Of a stretch of DNA of 44,546 nucleotides, positions 146 to 40,346 are shown piece after piece. Positions within the stretch are counted from its first letter, which is position 1. The number at the start of each line of letters is the position of its first letter. The position numbers and the translations under genes are program-made. The stretch spans positions 1 to 44,546 of the forward strand of contig CAYRYQ010000005.1 in assembly GCA_964428505.1 (NCBI GenBank). The letters are read 5' to 3'. This stretch comes from an uncultured Eubacteriales bacterium (GTDB taxonomy: Bacteria; Bacillota; Clostridia; Oscillospirales; QAKW01). The notes below the pieces were generated by a model, which did no database searches, had not been told where the DNA came from, and saw only the letters and a program-made list of their open reading frames with translations.

Positions 146-1429
146 TTATTGATAAGGACAAAAAGTTACCATGATTGCCGGAAATTCATAGTAATCAATC
201 ACATCCCAAGCAATATATCTTGGACTTTGGTTCCATCCGTCTGTCACTTTTACAAATTTAAAGGTCGCCTTGCTACCAAAGGTATCTGTATTCATAACCG
301 TGTATCCAAACGCTACAACAGCGTGCCCGACATAATCAAAATTCCCACCAAGTTCTGCTGGCTCAAAACTTACAATAACCGGCCAAGAATAACTACCGAT
401 ATAATTTGTTAAAAAGCTCCAACTGTTTTGCGCTGTATAGGTCTTTCCCACATATCCATAGGCTGAATTCACCTCACGTAACACCCTGGAGGCACTTCCA
501 GAAAAATAGCTATGGGAATTCGTGGTGGTCGCAAAAGAAGGATCAAAATAGTCTAACTCATCAGATTTTTGGCATAAACTCTTGAATAAAACATCGTAAT
601 CAGATGGGTATGCAGGACAACAAATTGGTCTCCAATATCTCATGACGTTTGCCATTGCCGTAATAACACAATGATCCAGGTTATACAATCGATACCCATC
701 TGGAAGCCCTTTATACCCTAATCCTGGATCATAAGAATACATCAAATTCATAGCGCCAGAATTTCTCATTCCATCTTCTATTGTTCCATATGTTGAGCAC
801 GTTGCGCTTAAATAGCCCAAGCTTCTTAGCCAATCAATGGGACTTTGCTCAAATACTGCTATTCCCCCATTCGTAGTGGGAACAGAACCGGCTGTTATTA
901 AATCTCTAAAATCATTGTTACTTTCTTTGTTTCCACAAATTCGTTCACCGACAACATCTTTTTTTGACACAATTTGATCTTCATGATAATATTTTTCTGG
1001 GCTTCTTCTTGTTTCTTTTTCTTTTTCAAAAACAGAAAACGGCGTATAATAAATTGTTTCTCTTCCATCTAATGATTGTTTATAATAATCAGATGCCCCC
1101 TCATATGAAAATTCTGGGCAAAGTGCATAAGATGTGTCAGTGCTAATTAACACATATCCTTTTTCTGCGGTTTCATTAAAAAAATCAACACAGTAATATG
1201 TTATATTCCCCATTTCATCATATAAAGGTGTAATATTATAAGAATCAATGTTGATCTCACTTTGTGCATTCCCATAAAAATATAGAATTGCCATAGACAT
1301 TGCCTCATCCTGCGTAACAACCGTGTTTTCAGGCTCTGCAAATGTGATCATTTGGCAAAATGAAAATGCCATTATAACAGAGACCATTAAAAAAACAACT
1401 CTTTTACACTTAAAATAAAATTTCATCAT
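146..1429 (-). CDS. Secreted papain-fold cysteine peptidase, streptopain (C10)-like, with an N-terminal Spi/I69-like prodomain
   Basis: Signal peptide MMKFYFKCKRVVFLMVSVIMAFSFCQMITFA|EP. Catalytic-Cys context DHCVITAMANVMRYW resembles SpeB GCVATATAQIMKYH. His context VGHAVVAFGY resembles GGHAFVIDG, followed by DGWNQ (SpeB NWGWGG). Gene is about 33% GC against roughly 58% flanks. Confidence 0.6.
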   Translation of the reverse strand: MMKFYFKCKRVVFLMVSVIMAFSFCQMITFAEPENTVVTQDEAMSMAILYFYGNAQSEINIDSYNITPLYDEMGNITYYCVDFFNETAEKGYVLISTDTSYALCPEFSYEGASDYYKQSLDGRETIYYTPFSVFEKEKETRRSPEKYYHEDQIVSKKDVVGERICGNKESNNDFRDLITAGSVPTTNGGIAVFEQSPIDWLRSLGYLSATCSTYGTIEDGMRNSGAMNLMYSYDPGLGYKGLPDGYRLYNLDHCVITAMANVMRYWRPICCPAYPSDYDVLFKSLCQKSDELDYFDPSFATTTNSHSYFSGSASRVLREVNSAYGYVGKTYTAQNSWSFLTNYIGSYSWPVIVSFEPAELGGNFDYVGHAVVAFGYTVMNTDTFGSKATFKFVKVTDGWNQSPRYIAWDVIDYYEFPAIMVTFCPYQ

Positions 1430-24374: not shown

Positions 24375-25094
24375 TTATTGGGCCGGAATCAATTCTACTA
24401 TCACCAGCTCGGTTTTATTAAAAAGCCTTGGGATCGGCCCCCCCGTATTGGAAAGCCCCCGGCTGACAATGAGTCGATTGTCGTAAACGCCGGAGGTGTA
24501 CTTCGGAAAGAGCCCCTGTCCCGGCGCGTAAAGCCCGCGTCCCAGAAAGCGTATTTGTCCCCCGTGTGCGTGGCCGGAAAGAATCAGGTCGACCGTGGTC
24601 TTTTTCAGATATGATTCATAATATTCGGGATGGTGGCAGAGCAAAAGCTTGAAGCCGTCCCCTTTTGAATAGGAGGATAGCCATTTGAGGTTGGGCCTTT
24701 GTTCCTTGGGAGAAACGGCGTGACGCGACCCCATTCCTCCGGACGTCAGCCCCCCGATACGAAGCCCTTTAAACTGCATTTCAGCATCGTCCAGAACCGT
24801 AATGCCCAGCTTCGTCAGCATTGCAAGATCGGCTTGCCCGATAAAACGGTCGTGGTTTCCGATGGAATAGAAGGTGGGGGCAGTCTCCGCACAAAATTTC
24901 ATAAACGCGGGTGCGTGCATAGAGGCGGCAATCGTTCCGTCGACAAGATCGCCGCAAATGGCAATAAAGTCTGGCTTTTGAGCAGCCAGCGCGCATTCAA
25001 GCGCAGAGACGGGGCGGTCGTGCAGATCCGCAATCAGCGCAATGCGGTATGCCCGGTCAATTTTCTTGGGGATCCGATATGTGATTAATTCCAT
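24375..25094 (-). CDS. Calcineurin-like metallophosphoesterase (YkuE/YaeI-like)
   Basis: Motifs IADLHD, CGDLVD, GNHD, GHAHGGQ. Confidence 0.85.
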   Translation of the reverse strand: MELITYRIPKKIDRAYRIALIADLHDRPVSALECALAAQKPDFIAICGDLVDGTIAASMHAPAFMKFCAETAPTFYSIGNHDRFIGQADLAMLTKLGITVLDDAEMQFKGLRIGGLTSGGMGSRHAVSPKEQRPNLKWLSSYSKGDGFKLLLCHHPEYYESYLKKTTVDLILSGHAHGGQIRFLGRGLYAPGQGLFPKYTSGVYDNRLIVSRGLSNTGGPIPRLFNKTELVIVELIPAQ

Positions 25095-25229
25095 TCGATT
25101 GCCCCGTGTTCTTTTCTCATTTTATTTTCCATGTGGTCATCTCCTTACCGGATATTATATCCTCTCCGGATTCTTCTTTCAAGACAGCTAAAGATCCGTC
25201 CCTGTCTTCTGTTCCCCCGGCAAAACCTT

Positions 25230-25409
25230 TTATTTTTCCTTGGTCAACCAACGGAAGTCTGGCAAAACCGCGCATCTGTTATAACTGCCGAAATACTGTT
25301 TGTTGAGAGAAGTTTCAGAAAAAGAAAACCCGATTCTACCTTCGGAAAAAGCGGTCAGAAACACAGCGTTTTCATAAGCCGGGTAATCTTTAAAATAAGT
25401 GGTAATCAT
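25230..25409 (-). CDS. Small hypothetical protein (59 aa), translationally coupled to the upstream ORF
   Basis: Found by hand; it is below the track cutoff. MITTYFKDYPAYENAVFLTAFSEGRIGFSFSETSLNKQYFGSYNRCAVLPDFRWLTKEK. Its ATG overlaps the TGA of ORF 25406-25723 (ATGA). Confidence 0.35.
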   Translation of the reverse strand: MITTYFKDYPAYENAVFLTAFSEGRIGFSFSETSLNKQYFGSYNRCAVLPDFRWLTKEK

Positions 25410-25723
25410 GCTTTCCCACGGACTCCCGTTTGTTTTTTGATCGTATTGTTTCCGGTGCCGTTCAGGGTTCGATTCAAAAATTCTGTATAGACTTCCCGTT
25501 CCGTCTCAGTTAATTCCACCCCATGGTCTTCCCCGGGAAAATAAACAATGATCGACTCCATGCGGCGATCATCGGTAATAGTCGGCAGCAAATCGCTGCT
25601 TTTATGATAAATTTCGTCATCTAGTTCGAGCCCCATCGAAATAAAAGACCGATCCGGATCTTGGGTATAGGTCTTTATTTTAATTTCCTCTTCTTCAACC
25701 GGGTGTTCCAAATCTCCGTTCAA
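25406..25723 (-). CDS. Hypothetical acidic protein (up to 105 aa; start uncertain)
   Basis: The track ORF starts at a TTG directly after an in-frame TGA. Internal ATGs (MGLELDD, MESIIVY) are alternative starts. No recognisable family. Confidence 0.35.
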   Translation of the reverse strand: MNGDLEHPVEEEEIKIKTYTQDPDRSFISMGLELDDEIYHKSSDLLPTITDDRRMESIIVYFPGEDHGVELTETEREVYTEFLNRTLNGTGNNTIKKQTGVRGKA

Positions 25724-25754
25724 TCAATGCCGTTAAATTTTGTCAACCACAGAA

Positions 25755-25794
25755 CCGTCCCCTGATTTATAAGTCGTAGGAAGACAGGGGACGG
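25755..25794. repeat. Perfect 10-bp inverted repeat (REP-like hairpin) built from two copies of the island motif
   Basis: CCGTCCCCTG (25755-25764), 20-nt loop, CAGGGGACGG (25785-25794). Confidence 0.8.
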
Positions 25795-25908
25795 CACGAT
25801 GTTTTTTGTAAGCACGGATGAACCGTCCCCCTGCGTTTCCTTTTTTGGTTTCACGCTAACCGTCCCCTGTCCTTCTTAGCACATATAACCGTTCCCTGTC
25901 TTCCCGTC

Positions 25909-26097
25909 TTATTTCTTTAAATTAATATAAATTATTATAAAACTAAATATCATATAAATCCAAAGGATAATAAGAGAACATCGTCTTAATAAACGATACC
26001 CATTGGGATGATTGAAAAGAAAAACACCTAAACATATTATGGCCACAGCCACTACAGCAGCAATTGTAATTAATAATACCATTGTACGCTTCTTCAT
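25909..26097 (-). CDS. Small two-TM protein, putative immunity protein for the orphan Rhs tip
   Basis: MKKRTMVLLITIAAVVAVAIICLGVFLF...LIILWIYMIFSFIIIYI. Starts 11 nt after the orphan stop, with AGAGAGGTG as RBS. Low GC. Confidence 0.55.
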   Translation of the reverse strand: MKKRTMVLLITIAAVVAVAIICLGVFLFNHPNGYRLLRRCSLIILWIYMIFSFIIIYINLKK

Positions 26098-26108
26098 TAT
26101 ACACCTCT

Positions 26109-27128
26109 CTATTGGCTTGCTATACGTGTAATACGTACTCCTCTTCCAAAAATGGTAAGTACATAGACTTTAATTCCCCTACCAGCAGCATTATAATACG
26201 CTAATATTCCCGCAACTGTACCAGAAAACCATGTAAACGTACCAAAGAATGCCGCTAAAAATGGGCCAACTGGAGGTGGGATAATAGCAGTAATAACCCC
26301 AGCAAAAGCAGTACTTGCACCTATGATCATTAATTTTGCAATAATTAAATTTACTGTTTTACTTGAAATATAGTACCAATATGAATATCCAGTTGGGTCG
26401 ACATACATAACTGGATCATTCCTACAATAAGTATACAAATTTGCCGCAACACCAGTATCTCCCTCATGGAAGATCGGGTCATCCTTACTGATGAATCTTC
26501 CCAATCCCGGGTCATAATAGCGGCTTTGCAGGTAATAAAGGCCAGTCTCGGTATCGTAATAATACCCTCTGTAGCGTAAGGAGTTTGCAAGCCCTAAGGT
26601 GCCCGCCTCAGGTCCGCCGATTTGAGTTAAATTGCCCCATGTATCATAAGAGTAGGTGACCAATCTGGTATGACCAAAATCAATAATTCCGGTAATATCC
26701 CCTTGCAGATTACGCTCATAAAATAATTTGACACCATTGTAAACCATGTATACCGGATTATTATTTTCATCATAAATATATTGGATTGTATTGGTACCAT
26801 CGGTTTCCCCTACAATCGTATTGCCGTCCAGTGTATAGGTCGTGGTGACGCCGTTCACGGTTTTCCCGGTGCGGATCCCATCATAGCGATAGGTATATGA
26901 CGCGGTATTCCCCAAACCGGAGTTGGTGGCCCCTGTCAGATTGCCGTTGCTCCAGCTATAGGTCCATCCGTTATACGCCGTCAGATTCCCTTCGTTGTCA
27001 TAGCTGAGAGACTGCCCGCCGCAGCCGGTCAGCTGATCCGGATCGCCGGAATTTCCGTAGGTATAGGTCTGGGTGTAAACCGCCGGTATCGAAGATAAAT
27101 CTTCCTGTCTTGTATACTTAGATTCCAA
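26109..27128 (-). CDS. Orphan Rhs C-terminal module (last YD repeats plus an alternative hydrophobic tip); probably silent as it stands
   Basis: Residues YTRQEDLSS...GVAANLY are identical to the main Rhs protein. The sequence then diverges: [16 protein letters not shown] followed by an ~87-aa Gly/Ala-rich hydrophobic tail. The only start is a TTG (MESK) with no RBS, and homology to the main gene begins at 27116. Confidence 0.75.
26440..27116 (-). repeat. Direct repeat copy A (677 bp), apparently identical to 28985-29661
   Basis: Aligned by eye, block by block, with a constant offset of 2545 bp. No mismatch noticed. Confidence 0.85.
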
Positions 27129-27221
27129 CCAATGGAACTATAGGTGTGAGAGACAGGGGACGGGACACAAGGGGACGAATCATCATTTGTGTTTGTCTTT
27201 GCCTGTCTTTCTTTTAAAACA

Positions 27222-28098
27222 TAGAACAAGGCATGGTTTAAGGATGCTGAATGGATTGCTACGCTTTTGCAGCATGGATTACTGGAGCCGTCTTTTGTCC
27301 CGGAAAGAATGATCCGGGATTTACGGGAATTTTCCCGTACCTAATAAAAATGCCGTCGGAGATAGAAGCCGATACTTGAACCGGATGGAAAAGTTTCTTC
27401 AAACGCATGGCTTTAAACTTTCCAGTGTGTTGAGTGATATTAACAGCGTCAGCGGTATAAATATTCTTTCTGTGCTTGCTGAAAAAGGCAGTCTCTCTAT
27501 TGAAGATACGTTGTCAGCACTTAAAGGAAGGCATAAGTATACCGCAGACAACATACAAAAAGCAATCTGCGGTACACTCAATGCAAACGAATGTTTCCTG
27601 CTTCAAGATTTTATGAACGAAGTCAGGCACATCCAGGAACATATTAACAGAATCCTTGAAAAAATGTAAAACATTGCCGAACCATATCGGGATGTCCTTG
27701 AAAGACTGGATTGTATCCCGGGAATTGATCAGGTAGCCGCTCTTTTGATTCTGGCTGAAATCGGAGATTGTCCGAGTAAAAATTTCCGTACCTCCCGCCA
27801 TCTTTGTTCATGGGCTGGTCTTTCGCCAAGAAATGATGAAAGTGCCGGAAAACTTAAATCGAAAAAAATACTGCCCGGAAATCCTTACGTGAAATCCATT
27901 CTTTTCCAGGTCGCTTGGGCTGCGGTTAAAAACCGAAAAACGCCTCTTGGTAATTGGTTCTGGTCTCGGCAAGGGAAAATCGGTAAAAAGAAAGCAATTA
28001 TTGCGGTGTCCCGAAAAACTCTTACACTCTGTTATGCGCTCATTTCCAACAACACTTATTACGACATTAACTACATATCCCGTCCTTTGACTGAATAA
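27222..28098 (+). mobile_element. IS110-family transposase remnant (N-terminal DEDD domain missing; one frameshift and one in-frame stop)
   Basis: (K)AWFKDAEWIATLLQHGLLEPSFVPERMIRDLREFSRT, then a frameshift near 27340. Then RYLNRMEKFLQTHGFKLSSVLSDINSVSG...ILEKM, then a TAA at about 27667. Then CIPGIDQVAALLILAEIGDC..FRTSRHLCSWAGLSPRNDESAGK...GNPYVKSILFQVAWAAV (Transposase_20 signature). Confidence 0.75.
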
Positions 28099-28256
28099 TT
28101 TTCCGTGTATATCGTATTTTTAGAAGGTTTTCCCACCGGCTTGGTTCGTTATGCCTTTTTCTTCGTTTCCCCCGGTTTTGGTTTCACGCTAACGTCCCCT
28201 GTCTTTGTGTTGCATTTCCATGCGGTATCACAAACGAATGTACTGTCCCCTTTTGT

Positions 28257-28544
28257 TCATGAATGATCTTCCGTTTGATTGCTGGCTCTTTTTTTTATTA
28301 ACACATTTTCGGCCCATACCACTATGAAGCTTGAAAGATACGGCACCCCTTGATATACAACAAGGGAAATGTCTTTAAGTTTTATCCAGAAGAAAACACT
28401 TAATAGCAAAGTTATAAACAGAATGATCGCTGTTGCTTTAGGGGAAAGTTTATAGGTCTTCAATAGTAGGAACGCCATAATCAGTGGTATAATGGCCACG
28501 AAAAAAAGAACAGATCTTTGAAACACAAAAAAGAAAAAGTTCAT
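28257..28544 (-). CDS. Small three-TM protein, putative immunity protein for the main Rhs tip
   Basis: MNFFFFVFQRSVLFFVAIIPLIMAFLLL...AIILFITLLLSVFFWI...YLSSFIVVWAENVLI. GGGAGG RBS lies directly after the Rhs TGA. The track start at 28637 is trimmed to this ATG. Confidence 0.6.
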   Translation of the reverse strand: MNFFFFVFQRSVLFFVAIIPLIMAFLLLKTYKLSPKATAIILFITLLLSVFFWIKLKDISLVVYQGVPYLSSFIVVWAENVLIKKRASNQTEDHS

Positions 28545-28554
28545 GAATCCTCCC

Positions 28555-31500
28555 TCAATAGTCTCTTGTAAAATCAAGTTTTGGTCCAAAGTGATTGGTA
28601 TCCAAATAGCCATCCCATTTTCCATCCAAGATATCAATTATATACTGGATAGTATTCCCGATTGATGAAACGATTGTTCCGATACCCGCAAGAATACCTA
28701 TTGTTCTAACTACACGATATGTAGATTCTTTGGCAAAAGCACAGTACAATCTGTCATCAAATCTTTTAAATAGACTTTTCCCTACAGCAATTAATTCATT
28801 TCCGAAAGAAACAAGTTTATTGGCAGATTTCGAAACGGTACTCCATACTTTTGAAATTGCAAATAACGTTGGTATAAGGAATATTATTAAATCAATGGTT
28901 GTACCCAACCACCTAATGTTGATTTTTATATAACCCCAAAGTTCTACATTGATGACTGGATTATTCTCGCAATACACATATAAGTTTGCCGCAACACCAG
29001 TATCTCCCTCATGGAAGATCGGGTCATCCTTACTGATGAATCTTCCCAATCCCGGGTCATAATAGCGGCTTTGCAGGTAATAAAGGCCAGTCTCGGTATC
29101 GTAATAATACCCTCTGTAGCGTAAGGAGTTTGCAAGCCCTAAGGTGCCCGCCTCAGGTCCGCCGATTTGAGTTAAATTGCCCCATGTATCATAAGAGTAG
29201 GTGACCAATCTGGTATGACCAAAATCAATAATTCCGGTAATATCCCCTTGCAGATTACGCTCATAAAATAATTTGACACCATTGTAAACCATGTATACCG
29301 GATTATTATTTTCATCATAAATATATTGGATTGTATTGGTACCATCGGTTTCCCCTACAATCGTATTGCCGTCCAGTGTATAGGTCGTGGTGACGCCGTT
29401 CACGGTTTTCCCGGTGCGGATCCCATCATAGCGATAGGTATATGACGCGGTATTCCCCAAACCGGAGTTGGTGGCCCCTGTCAGATTGCCGTTGCTCCAG
29501 CTATAGGTCCATCCGTTATACGCCGTCAGATTCCCTTCGTTGTCATAGCTGAGAGACTGCCCGCCGCAGCCGGTCAGCTGATCCGGATCGCCGGAATTTC
29601 CGTAGGTATAGGTCTGGGTGTAAACCGCCGGTATCGAAGATAAATCTTCCTGTCTTGTATAATCATAGACTTTTTTAACGGTTATATTGCCACTTTCATC
29701 GTAGGAATAACAGATGGTTTCTCCAAGCACTCCGTTATCTTCCCGCACCAGCTGATCATTTCCATCATAGGTATAATAATTCTCTGTTTCAGCATTGTTT
29801 AGTGCCGGATGATCCGAGTGAATCGTCCGGATTGTTGATACAATATTGCCGTCTACATCATAAGTATATGCATAGGTATTTTGCTCATTGGCAACTCCCA
29901 TCCCAAAGTTGACCACATTGCCGGCCGTATCATACTCATAGTTTAAATACCAATCATCTGTGTTTGTTGCAAAGACAAGCTTGCCATTAGGATCATAGCG
30001 ATATTCATGCTCGCGAACTTGGCTATATGCCGCTTTTGTTAGATTTCCACTCCTGTCATAATAAAATTCTGTTCCATCCGGCTTTTTGACTGTTTTAGTG
30101 GTTCCGTCATCATAGTACGTATACCGGTAGCCTACGGTATTGTTGGAATAGGTATCGGCAGGCATAGACGCGTTCAACCCATCGCAGAACGCGACATATT
30201 GATCGGGACCAATTTTTTGGATAAGCTGTTGGCTGGCATTATAGACATAGCGGGTCACGCCGCCATCCGGGGCGATTTCACGCAGCAGCTGGTCACCACT
30301 TCCATAGGTATAGCGGAACCCAACGCTGCTGCTGGCATAGGTATCGGTAGGAGTGGAAGCATTCAGCCCATCGTCCGCGGCGACGTATTGCTGCGGGTTA
30401 ATCTGCTGAATCAATTTCTTATTCGCATCATAGAGATACCGCGTGGTATCCCCATTGGGCGCGATTTCCCGGGCTAACGCACCAAAGCTGTTATAGGTAT
30501 ACCGGTAACCGGCCGAGGGGTTTAGGTAGGTATCTACCGGGGTGATATTATAAAGCCCGTCATCCGCTGCGTCATACTGATCGGAGCCGATTTTTTGCGC
30601 CAGCCTGCGGTTACTGTCGTAAACATAACGGGTGACTTTCCCTTGCGTGTTGGTATAGCGCAGAACGCCGCCGTATTGATTATACACATAACGTTCGCCC
30701 ACCATCGGATTGCTGTACTGATAGGAAACGGGGGTGGAATTCAGGCCATCCTGCGCCGACCGGTAACGGTCCGCGCTGATTTTTTGAAGCAGGCGCCCCG
30801 CCGCATCGTAGACATAGCGGGTATATGTGCCGTCTTGATCCTTTGTGCGCACCACTGTTCCGTTTAAGTCGTAGACATTCGTCACGGAAGTGGTGCCGAC
30901 GCTGTTGGTCACCACGGCGCTTAAATTCCAGCCGATGGCATTATAGGTGTTGACGGTGGTCTCCGTAGTAACCCCGCCCTTCACTGTCTCCGCTGTCAGC
31001 TGATTGCCATGACTGTCATAGGTGTAAGTGGTGACCGCGCCTTCCGGATCGGTTGCCGTTTCTAACATTCCATCGGAATAATACGTATATTGATTGATTG
31101 TAAACAGGGACTGATTGCACCCGGCCGTGTAATCGATGGTGGTTCCATCCTTTTGCTTTGCGACCAAAAGCGCATTCCCATAAGCATCGTTCTGATAGAA
31201 GGTCTTCATGCCGTTCCGATCCGTATAGGTGACTAAAAATCCGTTTTCATCATAGCTGTACAGCTCTGAGGTGCTGTTGGAATAAACGGCGCTGGTCACA
31301 TCACCGCGTGCATTGTATTGATACACGGTCTGATCCGCCGCGGTAAGCGTTTCCCCATATTGATTATAGGTCGTTGTTCCTGTTTCGGTTTGAACGCTTT
31401 GCAGCCGCCCTGTGGCGTCATGATTGTACCGGGTCTCATTGCCGCTGCTGTCGGTTGCAATATAAATCAGCGCTACCACCGGATCCGCATGATAAGTTAC

Positions 31501-34500
31501 CGTCTCCCCGGCGGAGTCCGTTACGGAGGTCACCTGCCCGGCAGATGAATAGGCGATGGCCTCTTTTGTATTGCCAAGTGGATCGGCAACCTGTGTTAAA
31601 CGCGTATTTGTATAAGCATAGGTGGTGGTCTGCCCCATCGGATTGGTTGCGCCGGTCAGCAAATCGCCGGTGTAACTATAAGTGACTGCGCGGCCGGCCG
31701 GATCTGTGATGGAGGTGATTTTTCCGTTGGTATACCCAATGGCATAGGACTGACCCGCAGTGGAAAGAACCGACTGCACCTGCCCGCCTGTTCCCAGCGT
31801 GATGGTGGTCGTGTTTCCGTACACATCGGCGATGGAGGCCAAATATCCGTCGGTGTTAAAATGGTACTGAACCTGATCGGCGTCGGTCAGAGTGAAGGTG
31901 CCGTTCTCATTCAGCGCCAGTGTTGCGTGGGAATCATAGGAGGTGTAAATCCCGTTATCCCATACAAACTGGAGGGATTGACCGAAAAGTGTCACCACCT
32001 TTAACGTGGGGAGCTCCCCGGTTGTCTGAACGCCGCTGTCGTTCAGATAGGTGTATTTGGAATTTTGAACGCGGCCGGAATAGCTGAACGACCAGCCTTT
32101 TCCTAAAACGCCGGTTTCGGTCTGCGCGGAATCATAATTTCTTTCGATCGTTACGCCAGAACCGACAGAGCTTCCGGTCAAATCCGTAAAGGACTCGGTA
32201 TAATTCCCGATCGCCTGCGTTGTCAGAACATGATTGACCGTCACCTTTTGAACCAGCTCTTCACCGGAAATCTTTCTTTCATAAACGGTATAAACCCCGT
32301 TTTGATTAACGGTAAACTGATCTCCGCTGAAGAATGTGCCATGATTAGAAAAATAGTCTTTGGTGTGGTCGCCGATCGCCCATTTCTGGTAGGAGGTGGG
32401 AATAATAGAACTATCGGTAACGGTTACGGTATTCGTTGCGCCCCAGGTATCCTGGGCAACCGCTTCAAAATAAACCAAATTGGTTGGAACCTTTACCTTA
32501 TTGTTATAGCCTAATCCCAACGCACCATTTTCGTTACTTCCGCAGACAGACACCATTTCATCAGATGATATAGCATAAACGGTACCATTTCCTAAAACTA
32601 CTTCATCAACATAGTCCAACCCTGGTACAGTCACAGGAGTTGTCTCTGTACTGCTGTATTGATCTCCGATTCCCAGAGCGCTTTTCCCTCTTCCCCAGGA
32701 TTTTATGCCATCCCAATTAATTGCATAAGCATAGTCATCTTTTGCCACCAATTGAGACACATTGTAAAAATTCGAGACTTGTGTGGGTATGGTCTTGTTT
32801 GAGGCATCCCCTACACCCAGTTGTCCATAAGTGTTATTTCCCCAGGAATATATACATCCTTCGGCCAACGCATAAACTGAAGTCCCGCTTACCATAATAG
32901 AACCTACATAAAAAAGGCCTATGTCCACCGGATAGTATTGCGGAGAGGGATTACCCGTTCCAAGAACGCCCTGATAATTGGATCCCCAGGCCATTATAGT
33001 TGTATGGTAACCGCTCGCATCAATAGCGAAAGCAAAGCCGTTTCCTGCAACCACGTCAACAGCGTAATTTACAGAAGTACAAACAGGAGTAGAACTACTT
33101 ACGGTGTTGCCTATCCCAAGTTCTCCATTGCCATTATACCCCCATGCAACCAAAACCCCATCATGATCGAGCAAAGCGTAAACACTGCGGGTTTGCCCGG
33201 AATCTGCCACAGCGATTTTCCGAACATCTGTCAGTCCGGATATGATTACTGGCGTTGATTGATTTTGTGTATTGCCAATACCCAATTGGCCATAATTATT
33301 TAATCCCCAAGCCTTTACGGTTCCGTCATTTAACAGGGCAAATGCACAATGATTTCCCGCGACAACTTCCTTTACATCGGATAAGTTGTTTACGGTTACA
33401 GGAGAATTATGATTGGTTGTATTGCCAATCCCCAGTTCTCCATATGTGTTTTCCCCCCAGGCCTTTACCGTTCCGTCGCGCAACACGGCATAAACGGTAT
33501 TACTCCCCGGATAACTGGATAGTGATTCCACGTTGTTAAGATTTGAAATAGTGATCGGTGTATATTGGGCAGTTTCATTTCCAATGCCCAGCTGTCCATA
33601 TTGATTGTTGCCCCAAGCCTTTACAGTCCCATCCCAAAAAAGAGCATAGGCTGATTGAGAGCCGGTCACAATCTTTTTAGTACCATATAAAGAATTTTGT
33701 GAAAAAAATGTTGATATATCAGAGATTCTGCCGATACCAAGTTGACCGAAACCATTGTCACCCCATACTTTTACACTTCCATCATTGAGAACTGCGTAAA
33801 CGCTGGCATTTGCAACCGCAATATGATTTACACCCGCAAGGTCTGGTATAATGGCAGGGGACTGCTGCAGCACAGTATCTCCCAAGCCCAGCTGATATCC
33901 AATGCTATAGCCCCATGCTGCCACCGTTCCATTATTCTTAATTGCAAAAGCACCGTAAAATCCCGCAATCAATTGATTAACTTGGCTAAGGCTTGGGATA
34001 GCTACAGGGGAAGTCTGCGTGGTCGTATCACCATTGCCAAGCTGAAAAAAGCCATTGCCGCCCCACGAACGGACCGTCCCGTCGTTCAAAAGCGCATAAG
34101 CGCAATAAGAGCCCGTAACAATCTGTTTCACATCTCCAAGACCTGAAATGTCAACCGGTAAAGTCTGTGTTTGTGTATTGCCTACACCAAGCTGACCATA
34201 ATTATTATAGCCCCATGCCTTCACTGTACTGTTATTCATTAGGGCAAAAACATAATTGTCCCCTGTAATGATTTGGTTGACCCCAGTAAGGGAAGATAGG
34301 GAAACAGGGGAAATTTGCGTTGTTGTGTTCCCAATACCAAGTTGCCCATATCCATTAATACCCCATGCTTTAACTGTTCCATCATCTATAACAGCATAAG
34401 CACAATTGGTCCCTGTTACTATTTGATCAACTCCCGTAAGATTTGATATGGAAACTGGGGATGTCCGATTCGCTGTATCCCCTAATCCAAGCTGACCATA

Positions 34501-35007
34501 ATTATTATAGCCCCATGCTTTAACGGTGCCATCATTCATCAATGCAAAAGCAAACTTGTCTCCTGCTGCTATTAAATGAACTCCTGTAAGGCCTGCAATG
34601 GTAACAGGGGATAATTGATTCGTTGTATTCCCGATACCAAGCTGCCCATAGTTGTTATTGCCCCATGCTTTAACCGTTCCATCTTCCATAAGGGCATATG
34701 CGCAGTCCGTTCCTGCTATCATGTCGTCTACATCTGTAAGGCCAGGAACAGTTACAGGCGAATACTGCAAATCCGTGTTGCCAATACCAAGCCGGCCATC
34801 CCCATTATATCCCCAGGCCATTACGGTATCATTTTCCATAAGAGCGAAGGTAGAGGACCCCGATTTGCTTGCAATGATCTGCTTCATTTTAACATGATTA
34901 TTGCTGGATGAGGAATCTGCGAATGCAATGACGCCCAAAGATTGAATGCCGATGAAAATCACCAAAAAAATTGATAAAAACCGAACCCATTTCTTTGTTC
35001 CTCGCAT
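28555..35007 (-). CDS. Sec-signal RCC1-repeat / Rhs (YD-repeat) polymorphic toxin, 2150 aa
   Basis: Signal peptide ...GVIAFA|DSS. About 16 RCC1 blades (AWGYNNYGQLGIGNT-type). Ig-like spacer. Rhs shell onset ...GVLGKGWSFSYSG. Many YD repeats. Shell end [15 protein letters not shown]...ANLYVYCENNPVINVELWGY. Then an ~126-aa hydrophobic C-terminal tip. Confidence 0.9.
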   Translation of the reverse strand: MRGTKKWVRFLSIFLVIFIGIQSLGVIAFADSSSSNNHVKMKQIIASKSGSSTFALMENDTVMAWGYNGDGRLGIGNTDLQYSPVTVPGLTDVDDMIAGTDCAYALMEDGTVKAWGNNNYGQLGIGNTTNQLSPVTIAGLTGVHLIAAGDKFAFALMNDGTVKAWGYNNYGQLGLGDTANRTSPVSISNLTGVDQIVTGTNCAYAVIDDGTVKAWGINGYGQLGIGNTTTQISPVSLSSLTGVNQIITGDNYVFALMNNSTVKAWGYNNYGQLGVGNTQTQTLPVDISGLGDVKQIVTGSYCAYALLNDGTVRSWGGNGFFQLGNGDTTTQTSPVAIPSLSQVNQLIAGFYGAFAIKNNGTVAAWGYSIGYQLGLGDTVLQQSPAIIPDLAGVNHIAVANASVYAVLNDGSVKVWGDNGFGQLGIGRISDISTFFSQNSLYGTKKIVTGSQSAYALFWDGTVKAWGNNQYGQLGIGNETAQYTPITISNLNNVESLSSYPGSNTVYAVLRDGTVKAWGENTYGELGIGNTTNHNSPVTVNNLSDVKEVVAGNHCAFALLNDGTVKAWGLNNYGQLGIGNTQNQSTPVIISGLTDVRKIAVADSGQTRSVYALLDHDGVLVAWGYNGNGELGIGNTVSSSTPVCTSVNYAVDVVAGNGFAFAIDASGYHTTIMAWGSNYQGVLGTGNPSPQYYPVDIGLFYVGSIMVSGTSVYALAEGCIYSWGNNTYGQLGVGDASNKTIPTQVSNFYNVSQLVAKDDYAYAINWDGIKSWGRGKSALGIGDQYSSTETTPVTVPGLDYVDEVVLGNGTVYAISSDEMVSVCGSNENGALGLGYNNKVKVPTNLVYFEAVAQDTWGATNTVTVTDSSIIPTSYQKWAIGDHTKDYFSNHGTFFSGDQFTVNQNGVYTVYERKISGEELVQKVTVNHVLTTQAIGNYTESFTDLTGSSVGSGVTIERNYDSAQTETGVLGKGWSFSYSGRVQNSKYTYLNDSGVQTTGELPTLKVVTLFGQSLQFVWDNGIYTSYDSHATLALNENGTFTLTDADQVQYHFNTDGYLASIADVYGNTTTITLGTGGQVQSVLSTAGQSYAIGYTNGKITSITDPAGRAVTYSYTGDLLTGATNPMGQTTTYAYTNTRLTQVADPLGNTKEAIAYSSAGQVTSVTDSAGETVTYHADPVVALIYIATDSSGNETRYNHDATGRLQSVQTETGTTTYNQYGETLTAADQTVYQYNARGDVTSAVYSNSTSELYSYDENGFLVTYTDRNGMKTFYQNDAYGNALLVAKQKDGTTIDYTAGCNQSLFTINQYTYYSDGMLETATDPEGAVTTYTYDSHGNQLTAETVKGGVTTETTVNTYNAIGWNLSAVVTNSVGTTSVTNVYDLNGTVVRTKDQDGTYTRYVYDAAGRLLQKISADRYRSAQDGLNSTPVSYQYSNPMVGERYVYNQYGGVLRYTNTQGKVTRYVYDSNRRLAQKIGSDQYDAADDGLYNITPVDTYLNPSAGYRYTYNSFGALAREIAPNGDTTRYLYDANKKLIQQINPQQYVAADDGLNASTPTDTYASSSVGFRYTYGSGDQLLREIAPDGGVTRYVYNASQQLIQKIGPDQYVAFCDGLNASMPADTYSNNTVGYRYTYYDDGTTKTVKKPDGTEFYYDRSGNLTKAAYSQVREHEYRYDPNGKLVFATNTDDWYLNYEYDTAGNVVNFGMGVANEQNTYAYTYDVDGNIVSTIRTIHSDHPALNNAETENYYTYDGNDQLVREDNGVLGETICYSYDESGNITVKKVYDYTRQEDLSSIPAVYTQTYTYGNSGDPDQLTGCGGQSLSYDNEGNLTAYNGWTYSWSNGNLTGATNSGLGNTASYTYRYDGIRTGKTVNGVTTTYTLDGNTIVGETDGTNTIQYIYDENNNPVYMVYNGVKLFYERNLQGDITGIIDFGHTRLVTYSYDTWGNLTQIGGPEAGTLGLANSLRYRGYYYDTETGLYYLQSRYYDPGLGRFISKDDPIFHEGDTGVAANLYVYCENNPVINVELWGYIKINIRWLGTTIDLIIFLIPTLFAISKVWSTVSKSANKLVSFGNELIAVGKSLFKRFDDRLYCAFAKESTYRVVRTIGILAGIGTIVSSIGNTIQYIIDILDGKWDGYLDTNHFGPKLDFTRDY
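28985..29661 (-). repeat. Direct repeat copy B (677 bp), inside the main Rhs gene
   Basis: See copy A. Encodes YTRQEDLSS...GVAANLY. Confidence 0.85.
32480..34878 (-). repeat. Tandem coding repeats of about 150-160 bp (RCC1 blades) within the Rhs gene
   Basis: Sixteen recurrences of the (A/S)WG.N..G(Q/E)LG.G(N/D)T motif, spaced about 50-52 aa apart. Confidence 0.85.
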
Positions 35008-35059
35008 TTGATACGTCCCTCCTTATTTTCCATTTTTTACAAAATGGTTTAATATAAAA

Positions 35060-35088
35060 TATATATCACTTTTCATTTAATTTGTCAA
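35060..35088 (-). promoter_or_regulatory. Candidate sigma-A promoter of the Rhs gene
   Basis: Reverse strand: TTGACA (35088-35083), 17-nt spacer, TATATA (35065-35060), in an AT-rich 250-bp spacer. Confidence 0.4.
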
Positions 35089-35202
35089 TGTTTTTTATTT
35101 AATTTATTCCATTTTTGAAATTTTATTGTACTGAATGAATTATATATTAATTAAAAAATGGAATTTCATTTTATAATATTGAAGAGAAAAAACAAATTTT
35201 TA

Positions 35203-37703: not shown

Positions 37704-37754
37704 ATTCATATGAATATTTGCTCATATAATAATCCTTTTCAATCCATTTGTCAA
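37704..37754 (-). promoter_or_regulatory. Promoter plus ArsR-type operator of the metal-efflux operon
   Basis: Reverse strand: TTGACA (37754-37749), 17-nt spacer, TATTAT (37731-37726), then TTATATGAGCAAATATTCATATGAA. That is an imperfect 12-2-12-style inverted repeat containing the perfect palindrome ATTCATATGAAT (37704-37715), and it resembles CzrA/CadC operators as I recall them. Confidence 0.5.
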
Positions 37755-37769
37755 CCCTTTATTAAAAAG

Positions 37770-37798
37770 TTGAAAAAAACGTTCCTCCATGCTATACT
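37770..37798 (+). promoter_or_regulatory. Divergent sigma-A promoter for the putative glycoside hydrolase gene
   Basis: TTGAAA (37770-37775), 17-nt spacer, TATACT (37793-37798). Confidence 0.5.
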
Positions 37799-37835
37799 GC
37801 ATTTAATAACAAATATGCAAAAGGAGCTGTTTTCC

Positions 37836-40346
37836 ATGACTGCTTTTTCATTGCCGGACCTGACCGATCAAACCGCGGAATATACCCATCTGCCCACCCG
37901 CCAGCAGCTGTTTCTCTGGCGCAACTGGGAAATGGTGGCGCCGGAACGGCTGGCGAAAGTGCTCGGCTGCCAAACGGAGCAGGTGCTGGAGCTGGCGCGT
38001 CTTTCCGGGCTGCCCACCCCGCCGCGTCTTAACCCTCTGTACCAAAGCCGCGGGTATATCACGCTGATCCGCAACAACTGGCACCTGCTACCCTACCGGC
38101 AGCTGACCATGCTTTTGGGGATCTCTGCAGAGGAGCTGGCGTTTCGATTAAAAGAAGATGATTTCCTGGCGGTGAAGCTTTGGAAAAAGCCAAATGTGGC
38201 GCCGCTCTATTATCGAGAGCTGACCGCAGAAGAGCGGCAGGCGAGCTTGGAAATCCAGCGTCTTTCCCGCCGCTTTTTTGCAAAAAGGCTTCAAAATGCC
38301 ACCGCCCGTTCATTTGATTTTTCAGATCATTATCCGGCCCGGTGCATCGCCCCCACGCCCCGTCCGGCGCTGCCGGTGGCCCTTAGCGAAGACTGGCGGG
38401 TGGACTGCAGGGGGCAAAGCGTGGCGGTGCGCCGCTATGCCGCGGATTTTCGGCGACAGCTAAAAGAGGCCTTTGGTCTTTCGCTGCACGGAACGCATCA
38501 CGCCGTCACGCTTCGGGTAACGCCGGATCCGCACGCAAAACCGGAAAGCCATACCATTGTGATTTCCGAAGAGGCAATCAGGATCACGGCGGCGGACGAT
38601 ACCGGTATTTTAAGAGCGTTGACCTTTTTGTTGGAAGAGGCGGCGCAAAACGGCGCACCGGCCTACCGGCAGGGGGAGCACCGGCGCGCTCCCCGCTTTC
38701 ACTCCCGGATTCTTTATTCCTATCAGGCGCTGTTTGGCGACGCGCTGCTGGACGGGGCAAAAAGCTCTTATCCCGATTCTCTGCTCCGGCAGTATGCCGC
38801 TCTTGGCATCAACGGAATCTGGCTGCATGCCGTGCTGTATCAGCTGGTGCCCTTCGCGCCGGAGCCCGCTCTGTCTGCCGGTTGGGAGCGGCGGCAGGAA
38901 GGGCTTCGGGATCTGATCGCCCGGGCCGCGCGTTACGGCATCGGCGTATACTTATACCTCAATGAGCCGCGCTGCATGCCCCGCTCTTTTTTTGAAACGC
39001 ATCCGGAGATGCTGGGCTATTACGAAAAGGAGACCGGCACCCTCTGCACGGAAGCCCCGGCGGTGCGGCGGCTGCTATACGAAAATGTGCGGAATCTTTG
39101 CGCGTCGGCGCCGGGCCTGCGGGGTTTTTTCACGATCACCGCGTCGGAGAACCTGACCAATTGCTATTCCCACATGCCGGAAACCCCCTGCCCCCGCTGC
39201 GCTTTGAAAACGCCCACGCAGGTGATCGGTGCGCTCAATACCCTGCTGGCAAGCGCCGCCCATTCGGTGGATCCCTCCATGGAATGCATCGCCTGGAACT
39301 GGGCCTGGGACAAAGGAAACATCGACTGGCCGCAAATGACAAAGCTTCTCCGGAAGGAACAGATGCCGCTTTTATGCACCAGTGAGGAGGGCGTGCAAAA
39401 AAACATCGGCGGCGTAACCACCGCGGTGGTGGATTATGCACTGTCGATGCCGGGACCCGGCTCCTATGCGAAAAAAATCTGGAAAATTGCCCAAAAAGAC
39501 GGCGTTGCGGCCTATGCGAAAATCCAGTGCAACAACAGCTGGGAATGCTCTGCCGTGCCGTATCTTCCGCTTTCCGGCCTGGTAGAGGGGCATCTTCAGC
39601 GGCTTGAGCGGGCTGGCGTGGAAGGGCTGCTGCTCAGTTGGTCGCTGGGCGGGTATCCGTCGATGACCTTAGGCCTTGCCGCAAAGCACTATTTTTCAGA
39701 CAGCCAGCCGGTTTCCGACTATTATCTGCGGTTTGGCCCTGCGTCGGACGCGGTGCATGCCGCCGTCACAGCCTTCGGCCGGGCCATGGGCGCCTTTCCC
39801 TTTCATCTGCGCACGCTCTACCGTGGCCCCCAGCAGCTGGGGCCGGCGAATTTGTGGTTTGCAGCGCCATCCGGCCTTCTTGCCACGATGACCGGCTTCC
39901 CCTATGACGATCTGGAGCATTGGCGGGGCCCCTTCCCGGAGGAAGTGCTGGAGCAGCAGTTCCGCAAGCTCTCCCGGGGCTTTCGCCGGGCCTTTAACCG
40001 CCTTGCGCGCGCTCTGCCGGCCGCGCCCCTTTTGGCACTGCAGGAGCTTTCAGACGTCAGCCAAAGCGCAACGCTGATCTATGAAAGCGTCTGGCGGCAA
40101 ATCCGGTTTATCCGGCTCCGGAACGCGTATCTTGCCGCGGAATCCGAAAGCCGCGCCGTTCTCCGGCGGTCGATCCTGCGCCTGATCCGCCAAGAGGAGC
40201 AGGGCGCGCTTTGCCTGCTGGATCTTGTGCTGCGCAACTCCGCCATCGGCTTTGAAGCCGCCAACCATTACTTTTTCAACCGCTACAGCCTGATGGAAAA
40301 GGTGCTGAACTGCCGGGATCTGCAGGCGCGATTCAGCGCGGAATAA
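37836..40346 (+). CDS. Large cytoplasmic protein, putative glycoside hydrolase (GH20b/GH67N-like N-domain followed by a TIM-barrel-like region)
   Basis: Start MTAFSLPDL, preceded by AAGGAG. AVTLRVTPDPHAKPESHTIVISEEAIRITAADDTGILRALTFLLE resembles the N-domains of GH20/67/115. GINGIWLH...GVYLYLNEP...FFTITASEN looks like barrel strands. No signal peptide. Family assignment is from memory only. Confidence 0.3.
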   Translation: MTAFSLPDLTDQTAEYTHLPTRQQLFLWRNWEMVAPERLAKVLGCQTEQVLELARLSGLPTPPRLNPLYQSRGYITLIRNNWHLLPYRQLTMLLGISAEELAFRLKEDDFLAVKLWKKPNVAPLYYRELTAEERQASLEIQRLSRRFFAKRLQNATARSFDFSDHYPARCIAPTPRPALPVALSEDWRVDCRGQSVAVRRYAADFRRQLKEAFGLSLHGTHHAVTLRVTPDPHAKPESHTIVISEEAIRITAADDTGILRALTFLLEEAAQNGAPAYRQGEHRRAPRFHSRILYSYQALFGDALLDGAKSSYPDSLLRQYAALGINGIWLHAVLYQLVPFAPEPALSAGWERRQEGLRDLIARAARYGIGVYLYLNEPRCMPRSFFETHPEMLGYYEKETGTLCTEAPAVRRLLYENVRNLCASAPGLRGFFTITASENLTNCYSHMPETPCPRCALKTPTQVIGALNTLLASAAHSVDPSMECIAWNWAWDKGNIDWPQMTKLLRKEQMPLLCTSEEGVQKNIGGVTTAVVDYALSMPGPGSYAKKIWKIAQKDGVAAYAKIQCNNSWECSAVPYLPLSGLVEGHLQRLERAGVEGLLLSWSLGGYPSMTLGLAAKHYFSDSQPVSDYYLRFGPASDAVHAAVTAFGRAMGAFPFHLRTLYRGPQQLGPANLWFAAPSGLLATMTGFPYDDLEHWRGPFPEEVLEQQFRKLSRGFRRAFNRLARALPAAPLLALQELSDVSQSATLIYESVWRQIRFIRLRNAYLAAESESRAVLRRSILRLIRQEEQGALCLLDLVLRNSAIGFEAANHYFFNRYSLMEKVLNCRDLQARFSAE

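Follow-up and report, generated by a model that had tools for sequence, protein, structure and literature searches.

A probable Sec-dependent Rhs polymorphic toxin locus with an RCC1 array and an alternative tip cassette in a Clostridia bacterium

How Rhs toxins of the WapA and bacterial teneurin-like protein (TLP) types, which are exported by the Sec pathway, enter their targets without an injection machine is treated as an open question in papers of 2025-2026. The locus described here, from gut-type Clostridia, offers a compact and self-contained test case, with a separable RCC1 front, a tip of predicted membrane type and a matching candidate immunity protein, and it further comprises a second, alternative cassette and a catalytic release residue that is naturally altered. 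Within the window, the whole stretch of 44,546 bp that was analysed, the main RCC1–Rhs gene (28555-35007, minus strand) is an intact ORF of 2150 aa, in which a signal peptide, 16 RCC1 blades, a spacer, a DUF6531 plug, a YD shell, a putative core/autoprotease plug and a 125-aa tip follow each other in this order. We propose, as the probable reading, that the locus encodes a polymorphic toxin of the Rhs type which depends on Sec and would operate through successive steps of export, caging, tip insertion, immunity and cassette switching.

By sequence reading and hydropathy, the protein starts with a Sec type-I signal (MRGTKKWVRFLSIFLVIFIGIQSLGVIAFA/DSSS at the N-terminus; residues 1-30; 34918-35007, minus strand), recognizable from a basic n-region, a core that is hydrophobic (Kyte-Doolittle 3.08) and an AFA/D site at which cleavage is predicted, in agreement with the plain AXA signal peptide claimed in the first-pass annotation of this DNA. 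A ribosome-binding site (AAGGAGGG; 35017-35024, minus strand), found by sequence reading, is located 9 nt 5' of the ATG at 35007. In the AT-rich intergenic region of 249 bp, a promoter-like site (35060-35088, minus strand) combines TTGACA (35088-35083) and TATATA (35065-35060) over a 17-nt spacer. The evidence for this site as the promoter of the Rhs gene is weak, since a consensus promoter/terminator scan omitted it from its list and gave no excess of sites compared to shuffles.

Profile searches of the main protein with Pfam and NCBIfam at E <= 0.1 returned no PAAR, LXG, VgrG, SpvB or cell-wall-binding family, confirming what had been claimed for PAAR, LXG and cell-wall-binding domains, and no SLH, LysM, LPXTG, CW_binding or other anchor family; dockerin is likewise absent. 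Pfam also detected no T6SS, T7SS or Tc genes among the main ORFs of at least 100 aa in the window, as had been stated before, and the loci of three relatives are alike in this respect, with no secretion genes within 6-10 kb of P0054, P0125 and P0246. SpvB and TcdB have no match in the main protein or the window, and EssC/Esx-type T7SS genes are absent from the window and LXG/WXG from the protein. A T7SS may be encoded elsewhere in the genome, of which this contig was covered, but the cleavable signal peptide argues against its use. The possibility of an unrecognized PAAR, LXG or Tc protein was rejected based on the lack of a profile match in combination with the cleavable signal. Rfam gave zero matches across the whole window.

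The locus fits the known class of Sec-dependent Rhs toxins of Gram-positives, to which WapA and the TLPs belong, as a rare variant. The class is not uncharted: Rhs toxins of Gram-positives with a Sec signal constitute the WapA class (PMC12704120), and two further papers describe Sec-dependent toxins or proteins of similar build (PMC3482391, PMC13018210). Similar to WapA of B. subtilis and WapA-CT1 of S. suis, the locus encodes a Sec signal, a large and presumably extracellular N-terminal region, a Rhs/YD shell and, behind the core-end motif, a polymorphic toxin at the C-terminus, followed by a (here candidate) downstream immunity gene and with no T6SS or T7SS (PMC12704120). WapA, however, has cell-wall-binding repeats, whereas here none are found and the RCC1 array takes that position, and no WapA-type srtB or secF-like partner genes are present near the main gene. 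Zhang et al. (2012) include beta-propeller and RHS repeats among the Sec-dependent (T2SS/Sec) polymorphic toxins; in their Table 1 the Sec class has a signal-peptide leader, repeats of the ALF, ankyrin, beta-propeller, RHS, Sel1, TPR and tail-fibre types and no signature neighbour genes (PMC3482391). This description fits the main locus; the survey never names the RCC1 domain, the sole 'RCC1' string being part of a virus name (PMC3482391).

The TLPs come close as well, being described as proteins with a Sec signal, adhesion modules, a propeller and a YD shell, but with 'no obvious delivery machinery' (PMC13018210). The features shared with TLPs such as BiTLP of Bacillus inaquosorum (PDB 9pt5/9ifo) are the Sec/SPI signal in Gram-positives, variable N-terminal adhesion modules, a beta-propeller, a YD shell enclosing a small polymorphic C-terminal domain (CTD) and adjacent, here candidate, immunity genes (PMC13018210). 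TLPs are nevertheless defined by the superfold of FN-plug, NHL propeller and YD shell, whereas in our protein an RCC1 propeller is located upstream of a DUF6531 plug. NHL, FN-plug/TTR and TIP were not detected in the main protein by Pfam, the similarity to 9pt5/9ifo is confined to the YD repeats (E 4e-13), and TLP membership was rejected because NHL and FN-plug are missing.

What distinguishes the protein is its front (~residues 45-835; 32503-34875, minus strand). The first-pass annotation had seen about 16 RCC1-type blades here and had named profile and structure searches as the check; both now support it. Pfam reports 14 stretches of RCC1 (E 9e-116) and three of WD40_RLD (E 2e-152), together with RCC1_2, and the motif WG-x-N-x-x-G-x-L-G, counted between ~residues 45 and 835, gives exactly 16 blades. 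In an AlphaFold2 model of residues 31-935 (pTM 0.49) the repeats reach a pLDDT of ~75-90, and the best Foldseek matches in the PDB are the 7-bladed RCC1-like propellers of UVR8, HERC2 RLD and RCC1 (E 2e-29, probability 1.0; over these matches E 1e-29 to 1e-18 and TM (target) 0.5-0.7). The 16 blades may form two propellers, a number for which the first-pass annotation had judged them sufficient. The spacer domain that follows (~residues 836-930; 32218-32502, minus strand) is marked by the motif QKWAIG..YF..G..F....NGxYTVY, conserved 5' of the plug in the clade: it is present in P0125-P0133 and occurs in three copies in P0054. The Ig fold assigned to this spacer is not established, as Pfam yields no match (only noise at E <= 1) and AlphaFold2 models the region at pLDDT <50. 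A ligand of bacterial RCC1 arrays was not found in any of the searches made here and, to our knowledge, none is known.

RCC1–Rhs fusions are rare. Three were found, with the fusion kept at 33-50% identity in two Clostridia MAGs other than this one (P0127 and P0054). This count has to be taken as a minimum rather than a full inventory, because the fusion scan, built on a junction alignment of four sequences, used only two narrow peptide patterns (0 of 51 loci were RCC1–Rhs). A whole-protein homology search was dominated by RCC1-only giants, with P0054 as the sole true RCC1–Rhs relative; P0013, P0017, P0090 and P0115, flagged for RHS_repeat, were rejected on inspection as they have no Rhs shell. 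No experimental study of any member with the RCC1–Rhs architecture was found in the literature searched. Signal-type N-termini are present on the nearest relatives (P0125, P0126, P0128, P0129, P0130, P0133 and P0054), and the N-terminal modules of the closest Rhs relatives vary between dockerin, lectin/CBM, beta-helix, Ig/fn3 and subtilase. Judged from these sequences, the N-terminal surface module is exchanged freely within this Rhs clade. RCC1 is consequently one option among many, and the earlier notion of a special delivery module is not borne out.

The array may bind a receptor on the target, the surface of the producer itself, or neither of them, and two roles were weighed. It may be a self-anchor on the wall or S-layer of the producer, with target recognition located elsewhere and killing dependent on contact, a possibility that we hold tentatively and consider somewhat unlikely. 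Indeed, the equivalent N-terminal position is occupied by producer-side anchors in relatives and analogues (a dockerin in a relative, cell-wall repeats in WapA), but P0051, of which the RCC1 array is among the closest in sequence (44% identity), bears a separate SLH anchor (Pfam), and the lectin/CBM or protease modules of other relatives are not anchors. The SLH anchor of P0051 points to RCC1 as the part that faces outward and binds, rather than as the anchor. In the second role, the RCC1 propellers would recognize the target, docking the cage on a specific surface glycopolymer or protein of competing Gram-positives and triggering release of the membrane toxin without a secretion or injection apparatus. 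This more specific proposal is doubtful, and we give it a low probability. If true, it would describe a doubly polymorphic toxin, with N-terminal modules for range and C-terminal cassettes for toxin type. The target range would be set by N-terminal shuffling, given that the clade swaps RCC1, lectin/CBM, beta-helix, dockerin and other modules, and the substitution of Glu for Asp described below could mark triggered instead of constitutive release.

Behind the spacer, the full YD/Rhs shell that had been recognized before is supported by Pfam, NCBIfam and matches to solved cages. It opens with DUF6531, the N-terminal plug (residues 932-994; 32026-32214, minus strand; Pfam E 4.6e-08), which holds the equivalent position in all clade relatives, and continues with the YD/Rhs repeats (~residues 995-1938; 29194-32025, minus strand), comprising nine stretches of RHS_repeat (Pfam E 2.7e-41), RHS_core and YD_repeat_2x. 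By sequence it matches the solved Rhs cages Tse15, 8h8a, 7q97 and Tse5 (8cp6, E 3e-17). The Rhs-associated core domain (residues 1939-2025; 28933-29193, minus strand; TIGR03696 E 3.4e-20, above cutoff) is the putative C-terminal plug and aspartyl autoprotease of the shell. Its first motif, YYDPGLGRF, has DPGLG intact; the second is deviant (VELWGY), with Glu2022 (GAA; 28942-28944, minus strand) at the catalytic-Asp position of the DPxG motif. In the comparison with relatives, this residue is Asp in 80 of 81 and Glu only in the main protein; the other carriers of the tip 1 family all keep Asp. With Glu2022 in place of the catalytic Asp, release of tip 1 may be impaired. In Rhs1 of P. laumondii, the second-motif substitution D1338N abolishes cleavage, and mutating this Asp also lowers toxicity (PMC8636562).

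Toxin tip 1 (residues 2026-2150, 125 aa; 28558-28932, minus strand) was delimited by hydropathy, exhaustive search and alignment. As claimed before, it is short and hydrophobic, with two hydrophobic helices or segments; the toxin of B. subtilis WapA, in contrast, is of the nuclease/tRNase type. The family shares the invariant motif S-x-G-x7-D-x-L-D-G-x-W-D-G and is very rare, with 15 matches in 1.84 billion (1.84e9) representatives in the exhaustive search. Most of these are Rhs C-termini, and the eight inspected at full length all follow Rhs core-ends. An AlphaFold2 model with 10 family members was unusable (pLDDT 42), and Pfam at E <= 1 gave only noise for this tip, for the second tip introduced below and for both immunity candidates. 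Membrane activity of tip 1 is putative, based on hydropathy and analogy. One analogue is the CTD of BiTLP, which is membrane-active: this Bacillus TLP CTD permeabilises cells only if exported (PMC13018210). The other is Tse5 of P. aeruginosa, which is described as a Rhs cage delivering an encapsulated pore-former, the cage being thought to shield the C-terminal fragment and to bring it to the membrane (PMC10684867). A Rhs cage with a hydrophobic, membrane-inserting C-terminal fragment would be common to both systems, the fragment being predicted in our case. Tse5, however, is loaded on a T6SS and attacks Gram-negative targets from their periplasm, whereas here there is a Sec signal and no T6SS adaptor; VIRN, a prePAAR-TMD N-terminus and the Eag/VgrG neighbours of T6SS Rhs effectors are absent from protein and window, and the two tips are unrelated in sequence.

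Downstream of tip 1 follows the gene of candidate immunity protein 1 (95 aa; 28257-28544, minus strand), with its own RBS (GGGAGG) and, by hydropathy, two broad hydrophobic stretches that provide room for two or three helices. The coupled small TM protein noted earlier is therefore present, but the start most likely is the ATG at 28544, 9 nt after the Rhs stop and behind GGGAGG, instead of that of the overlapping TTG ORF at 28637. Along its full length, the protein shares 34% identity (E 3e-14) with the product of a 91-aa gene behind P0246, a Rhs protein of the tip 1 family. At the sequence level, the tip 1 family and the adjacent downstream gene co-vary, which is the pattern expected of an immunity pair.

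Further downstream, a second cassette begins with an orphan Rhs core-end (339-aa ORF; 26109-27128, minus strand; TIGR03696 E 6e-24 and sequence reading). It copies residues ~1783-2007 of the main protein and continues with the canonical VDPTGY and a tip 2 of 91 aa, hydrophobic and Gly/Ala-rich, unlike tip 1. The ATG of candidate immunity protein 2 (62 aa, two transmembrane helices; 25909-26097, minus strand) lies 11 nt after the orphan stop. Local BLAST found no relatives of tip 2 and immunity candidate 2 among the sequences retrieved in this analysis. The orphan core-end is without a promoter and shares with the main gene a direct repeat of 719 bp, of which the copy in the core-end of the main gene (28943-29661, minus strand) is 98.2% identical to 26398-27116; 677 bp of it (28985-29661) are 100% identical and in the same frame in both copies. 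An orphan core-end is also present at the locus of a relative (L001, 16426-16737). Two ORF pieces (27376-28098, plus strand) constitute the remnant of an IS110-family transposase, with a match to the C-terminal Transposase_20 (Pfam E 2e-15 on 27745-28098) only, no DEDD domain, and no Pfam match for 27376-27669. Around the cassettes, the motif GACAGGGGACGGTT occurs in six copies (25753-25900, 27152-27165 and 28190-28203; 0.16 expected), and a 32-bp repeat is located downstream of each immunity gene. The orphan cassette, the IS110 remnant and the direct repeat did not appear in the first-pass annotation, and neither did the rarity of the tip 1 family nor the Glu in the release motif; its reading as a polymorphic toxin of the Rhs type to which a membrane protein is coupled gains strength from the orphan cassette and from the co-variation of tip and downstream gene.

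The second cassette also bears on whether the main gene is active at all. It might be a decaying or disarmed copy in which Glu blocks the release of tip 1, the locus being non-toxic or weakly toxic and regaining activity only by recombination to the orphan tip with its canonical DPTGY. We judge this unlikely. The single Glu among 81 proteins, the Asp in all other tip 1 carriers, the effect of mutating this Asp in Rhs1 and the IS remnant, which shows a disturbed locus, are in line with such decay. Against it, the 6.4-kb ORF has no interruption at all, its ribosome-binding site is strong, and the immunity gene is both intact and conserved; Glu retains the carboxylate; the published substitutions of this Asp were Asn or Ala, Glu not being among them; and one section heading of the Tse5 paper announces a 'differential requirement' of C- and N-terminal cleavage for activity (PMC10684867).

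The same cassette weighs against a role outside bacterial competition, in which the protein would be an adhesin or a host-directed effector of a gut commensal, for instance in teneurin-like cell-cell adhesion or as a toxin against eukaryotic or fungal cells, and neither small membrane protein would confer immunity. Large surface proteins that lack a toxin commonly carry RCC1 arrays, as the whole-protein homology search showed, YD-shell proteins can act in adhesion, as teneurins do (PMC13018210), and the activity of the tip is a prediction. A variable tip after a conserved core-end together with a co-varying small gene is, however, the signature of interbacterial toxin/immunity systems (PMC3482391), and the orphan cassette is linked by a perfect recombination tract, which makes the non-antibacterial explanation very improbable.

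For the Sec-dependent polymorphic toxin that we propose, the preprotein would be exported unfolded via SecYEG and lose its signal peptide. Outside the cell, the YD shell would fold around the hydrophobic tip and keep it soluble, while the RCC1 array would remain attached to the cage, as no DPV..GE-type N-terminal cleavage motif is visible in the main protein. The role of the array would be to bind outside the cell and to keep the cage on the surface of the producer, of the target, or of both; since the main protein has no known anchor (SLH, LPXTG, CW_binding, dockerin), it could also simply diffuse away from the producer, and contact-dependent inhibition, as suggested in the first-pass annotation, is putative. 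Released at the core-end motif, the tip would enter the cytoplasmic membrane of an adjacent Gram-positive cell from outside, so that no import machine would be needed, and the cognate membrane immunity protein would shield producer and kin. A recombination event between the two copies of the 719-bp repeat would remove ~2.5 kb and place tip 2, followed by immunity gene 2, in frame behind the shell, and would thereby switch the toxin type.

The wider observation, that the clade swaps its N-terminal modules no less freely than its toxin tips, may be of more use than the RCC1 fusion itself. At least one hydrophobic helix is present in 43 of the 81 tips of relatives, so that about half of the tips in the clade look membrane-active, which would fit toxins that need only the outer face of the target membrane.

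Elsewhere in the window, an 878-aa ORF (37710-40346) has no Pfam match. The putative GltB, an ORF identified through its homologues, is 78% identical to proteins of Acutalibacteraceae MAGs, and these homologues point to a Clostridia bacterium of the Oscillospirales, near Acutalibacteraceae, as the host.

On sequence comparison, the locus combines a rare N-terminal module with a putative Sec-dependent Gram-positive Rhs toxin. Its tip/immunity family is very rare, an orphan cassette accompanies the main gene, and the release site has an unusual glutamate. The main gene (28555-35007, minus strand) encodes 2150 amino acids. Within the AT-rich 249 bp upstream, AAGGAGGG forms a strong ribosome-binding site, and a promoter-like TTGACA-17-TATATA site can be read from the sequence; in the promoter consensus scan overall, matches are at chance level. 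The protein starts with a signal peptide ending in AFA/D (residues 1-30), followed by 16 RCC1 blades (residues ~45-835), a spacer with the motif QKWAIG..YF..G..F....NGxYTVY (residues ~836-930), a DUF6531 plug (residues 932-994), a YD shell (residues ~995-1938), a Rhs-associated core domain (residues 1939-2025) and a tip of 125 amino acids with two hydrophobic helices (tip 1, residues 2026-2150). The first-pass annotation had described the N-terminal repeats as RCC1-like and had seen no PAAR, VgrG, LXG or cell-wall-binding motif, and both statements are borne out. In an AF2 model of residues 31-935, based on an input alignment of 10 trimmed homologues, the RCC1 repeats are predicted with good to high confidence and the model matches UVR8, the HERC2 RLDs and RCC1 (best E 2e-29); the blade arrangement is tentative and the spacer is modeled with low confidence. 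Family searches of the protein revealed none of the PAAR, VgrG, LXG, SpvB, NHL or cell-wall-binding domains. The YD shell matches the solved Rhs cages Tse15, 8h8a, Rhs1 7q97 and Tse5 in sequence, and teneurin-like proteins (TLPs) more weakly.

Searches with the Rhs part of the main protein identified relatives with diverse N-termini. P0127, a partial protein from an Oscillospiraceae MAG (50% identity), carries RCC1, as does P0054 from a Saccharofermentanales MAG (33%), there combined with three spacer copies and fn3. P0125/P0126 from an Anaerofustis MAG (44-45%) have ~770 non-RCC1 residues lacking Pfam matches, P0128/P0129 (37-38%; P0129 from Oscillospiraceae) have a region lacking Pfam matches that looks Ig/CBM-like by eye, and P0130-P0133 (32-35%) have fn3 and an RGI-lyase Ig domain. 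The full-length nearest relatives have signal-type N-termini, the plug is common to all examined, and the spacer immediately precedes it in all examined nearest relatives except P0054. A pattern scan of species-representative genomes found RCC1 upstream at none of 51 related loci, where the modules include fn3, dockerin and beta-helix (Ruminiclostridium papyrosolvens), Big_13 Ig, NosD beta-helix, subtilase, legume lectin with CBM2, and disaggregatase repeats. The delivery module, called unusual in the first reading, is indeed so in that RCC1–Rhs is, by these comparisons, rare (three cases seen) yet conserved across 33-50% identity, but it is one of many swapped modules in a clade that exchanges its N-terminal surface module freely. 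The reported absence of secretion genes nearby extends to three relatives: P0054, P0125 and P0246 (a tip 1-family Rhs protein) are each isolated among unrelated genes, with a small gene of no Pfam family downstream and no T7SS, T6SS or Tc genes within 6-10 kb. As a separate observation, the Rhs relatives of R. papyrosolvens C7 (L004, 5684-16606) and R. hungatei (L007) are ~3,640-3,710 aa long with fn3 repeats upstream of the shell; the former also has a dockerin and beta-helix, which suggests that a cellulosome scaffold carries this Rhs toxin.

Tip 1 matched only 15 proteins when 1.84 billion representatives were searched exhaustively with HMMER; of these, P0248 was rejected as a low-complexity artefact. 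In eight of the ten matches read full-length the tip directly follows the Rhs core-end, these carriers being full-length Rhs proteins (P0246) or fragments. The motif S-x-G-x7-D-x-L-D-G-x-W-D-G is invariant in the family alignment, and the tip of P0054 is a distant member (20% identity) that keeps the terminal motif. The AF2 model of tip 1, at very low confidence, gave no usable fold. The candidate immunity gene imm1 starts with an ATG at 28544, 9 nt past the main-gene stop and behind GGGAGG; its 95-aa product has two broad hydrophobic stretches with space for two or three helices, and Pfam and NCBIfam searches assigned it to no family. P0246 (1981 aa) differs from the main protein in its N-terminus; their toxin tips are 65% identical, and the 91-aa membrane protein encoded directly behind P0246 shows 34% identity to imm1 across its whole length. 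Tip and downstream membrane gene thus co-vary, as predicted for a toxin/immunity pair. The coupled small TM protein noted earlier is real, and sequence comparison argues for its immunity role. The tip/immunity family is very rare and previously uncurated. More broadly, a crude hydropathy test finds one or more membrane-type helices in the tips of 43 of 81 relatives (P0125-P0254), many tips being Gly-zipper-like, and small membrane-active toxins appear over-represented in this signal-peptide Rhs clade.

An aspartyl autoprotease, whose catalytic Asp belongs to the second DPxG motif, frees the C-terminal toxin of Rhs proteins; P. laumondii Rhs1 is no longer cleaved when it carries D1338N (PMC8636562). 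In the main protein the second motif reads VELWGY, with Glu2022 (28942-28944, minus strand) replacing this Asp, which is present in 80 of 81 relatives with a locatable motif, in the orphan copy and in all tip 1-family carriers. Since homology to the orphan breaks at codon 2008, the change lies within the variable cassette.

The orphan cassette and an IS110 remnant, both missed by the first-pass annotation, lie downstream on the same sequence. The orphan ORF (26109-27128, minus strand as the main gene, 339 aa) has no plausible start codon of its own and repeats the main-gene core-end as a direct repeat of 719 bp (98.2% identity). A stretch of 677 bp (28985-29661) is perfectly identical, and every difference falls within the final 42 bp, adjacent to the tips. 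Past the repeat follow a canonical VDPTGY, a 91-aa Gly/Ala-rich hydrophobic tip 2 unrelated to tip 1 and with zero relatives among the sequences collected here, and a 62-aa immunity candidate (imm2) with two transmembrane helices. Main rhs gene and putative orphan cassette form the classic arrangement; recombination across the repeat would delete ~2.5 kb, fusing tip 2 in frame. The P0054 locus likewise has a downstream orphan core-end fragment (L001, 16426-17249), then a 157-aa ORF. Between the two cassettes, on the opposite strand, lies the IS110-family transposase remnant (27376-28098, plus strand), two ORF pieces with the Transposase_20 domain only, the N-terminal DEDD domain missing; an Rfam search of the window gave zero matches. 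The window contains six copies of the 14-nt motif GACAGGGGACGGTT against 0.16 expected, only at the cassette borders and beside the remnant (25753-25900, 27152-27165, 28190-28203); the motif may be a cassette boundary, IS target or REP-like element.

We propose that the main protein would be exported by Sec, that its cage would fold outside the cell around the hydrophobic tip, and that the RCC1 array would mediate surface binding. The released tip would insert from outside into the neighbour's membrane, the membrane immunity protein would protect kin, and repeat-mediated deletion would switch the toxin type. What we observe are the parts and the comparative patterns; we infer every functional step from published work on Rhs proteins, WapA, TLPs and Tse5. 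The RCC1 role is the least certain step: a relative has a dockerin at the equivalent position, which speaks for display on the producer, while a separate SLH anchor in P0051, an RCC1 protein among the most similar in sequence, points to RCC1 as an outward-facing binder.

Like WapA (PMC12704120), the locus has a Sec signal, Rhs, a polymorphic C-terminal toxin and an immunity gene; unlike WapA, it lacks the defining wall-binding domain and has no S. suis srtB/secF-like partners. In its logic it resembles TLPs, with Sec, adhesion modules, propeller, YD shell, immunity and no delivery machine, and a small hydrophobic tip comparable to the small, sometimes membrane-active TLP C-terminal domain (PMC13018210), but it lacks the FN-plug/NHL that defines them. 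Beta-propeller and RHS repeats already appear in the 'T2SS/Sec-dependent' row of Zhang et al. (2012), into which the locus fits (PMC3482391), and Tse5 (PMC10684867) is a precedent for a cage carrying a pore-former. The original observation stands, and its interpretation holds in part, since a Sec class of the WapA/TLP/Zhang type was already described.

The window comprises an entire contig of 44,546 bp. Both cassettes reside in a low-GC island (~25,000-35,100; GC 0.37-0.52 versus 0.53-0.60 in the flanks) amid housekeeping genes (Zn ABC transporter, GltB/GltD, FGGY kinase, RlmL-type methyltransferase, radical-SAM protein, ArsR/HMA/P-type ATPase, IleRS). Proteins from Acutalibacteraceae MAGs share 78% identity with this GltB, and two other matches are closer (84-85%); the host therefore belongs to the Oscillospirales Clostridia, which are Gram-positive. 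An 878-aa ORF in GC-rich DNA (37710-40346, plus strand) drew zero Pfam matches; it may encode a genuine protein of unknown type or may have arisen by chance opposite other genes. GC is low (0.37-0.42) in a second stretch, at the contig start; the 427-aa product encoded there (146-1429, minus strand) has a Peptidase_C39_2-like domain. A protein of 1943 aa at the island edge (18242-24073, minus strand) combines an Exo_endo_phos nuclease/phosphatase domain with Listeria-Bacteroides (Flg_new) repeats and is adjoined by a calcineurin-like phosphoesterase (24375-25094, minus strand); it may be a nuclease that is secreted or located at the surface.
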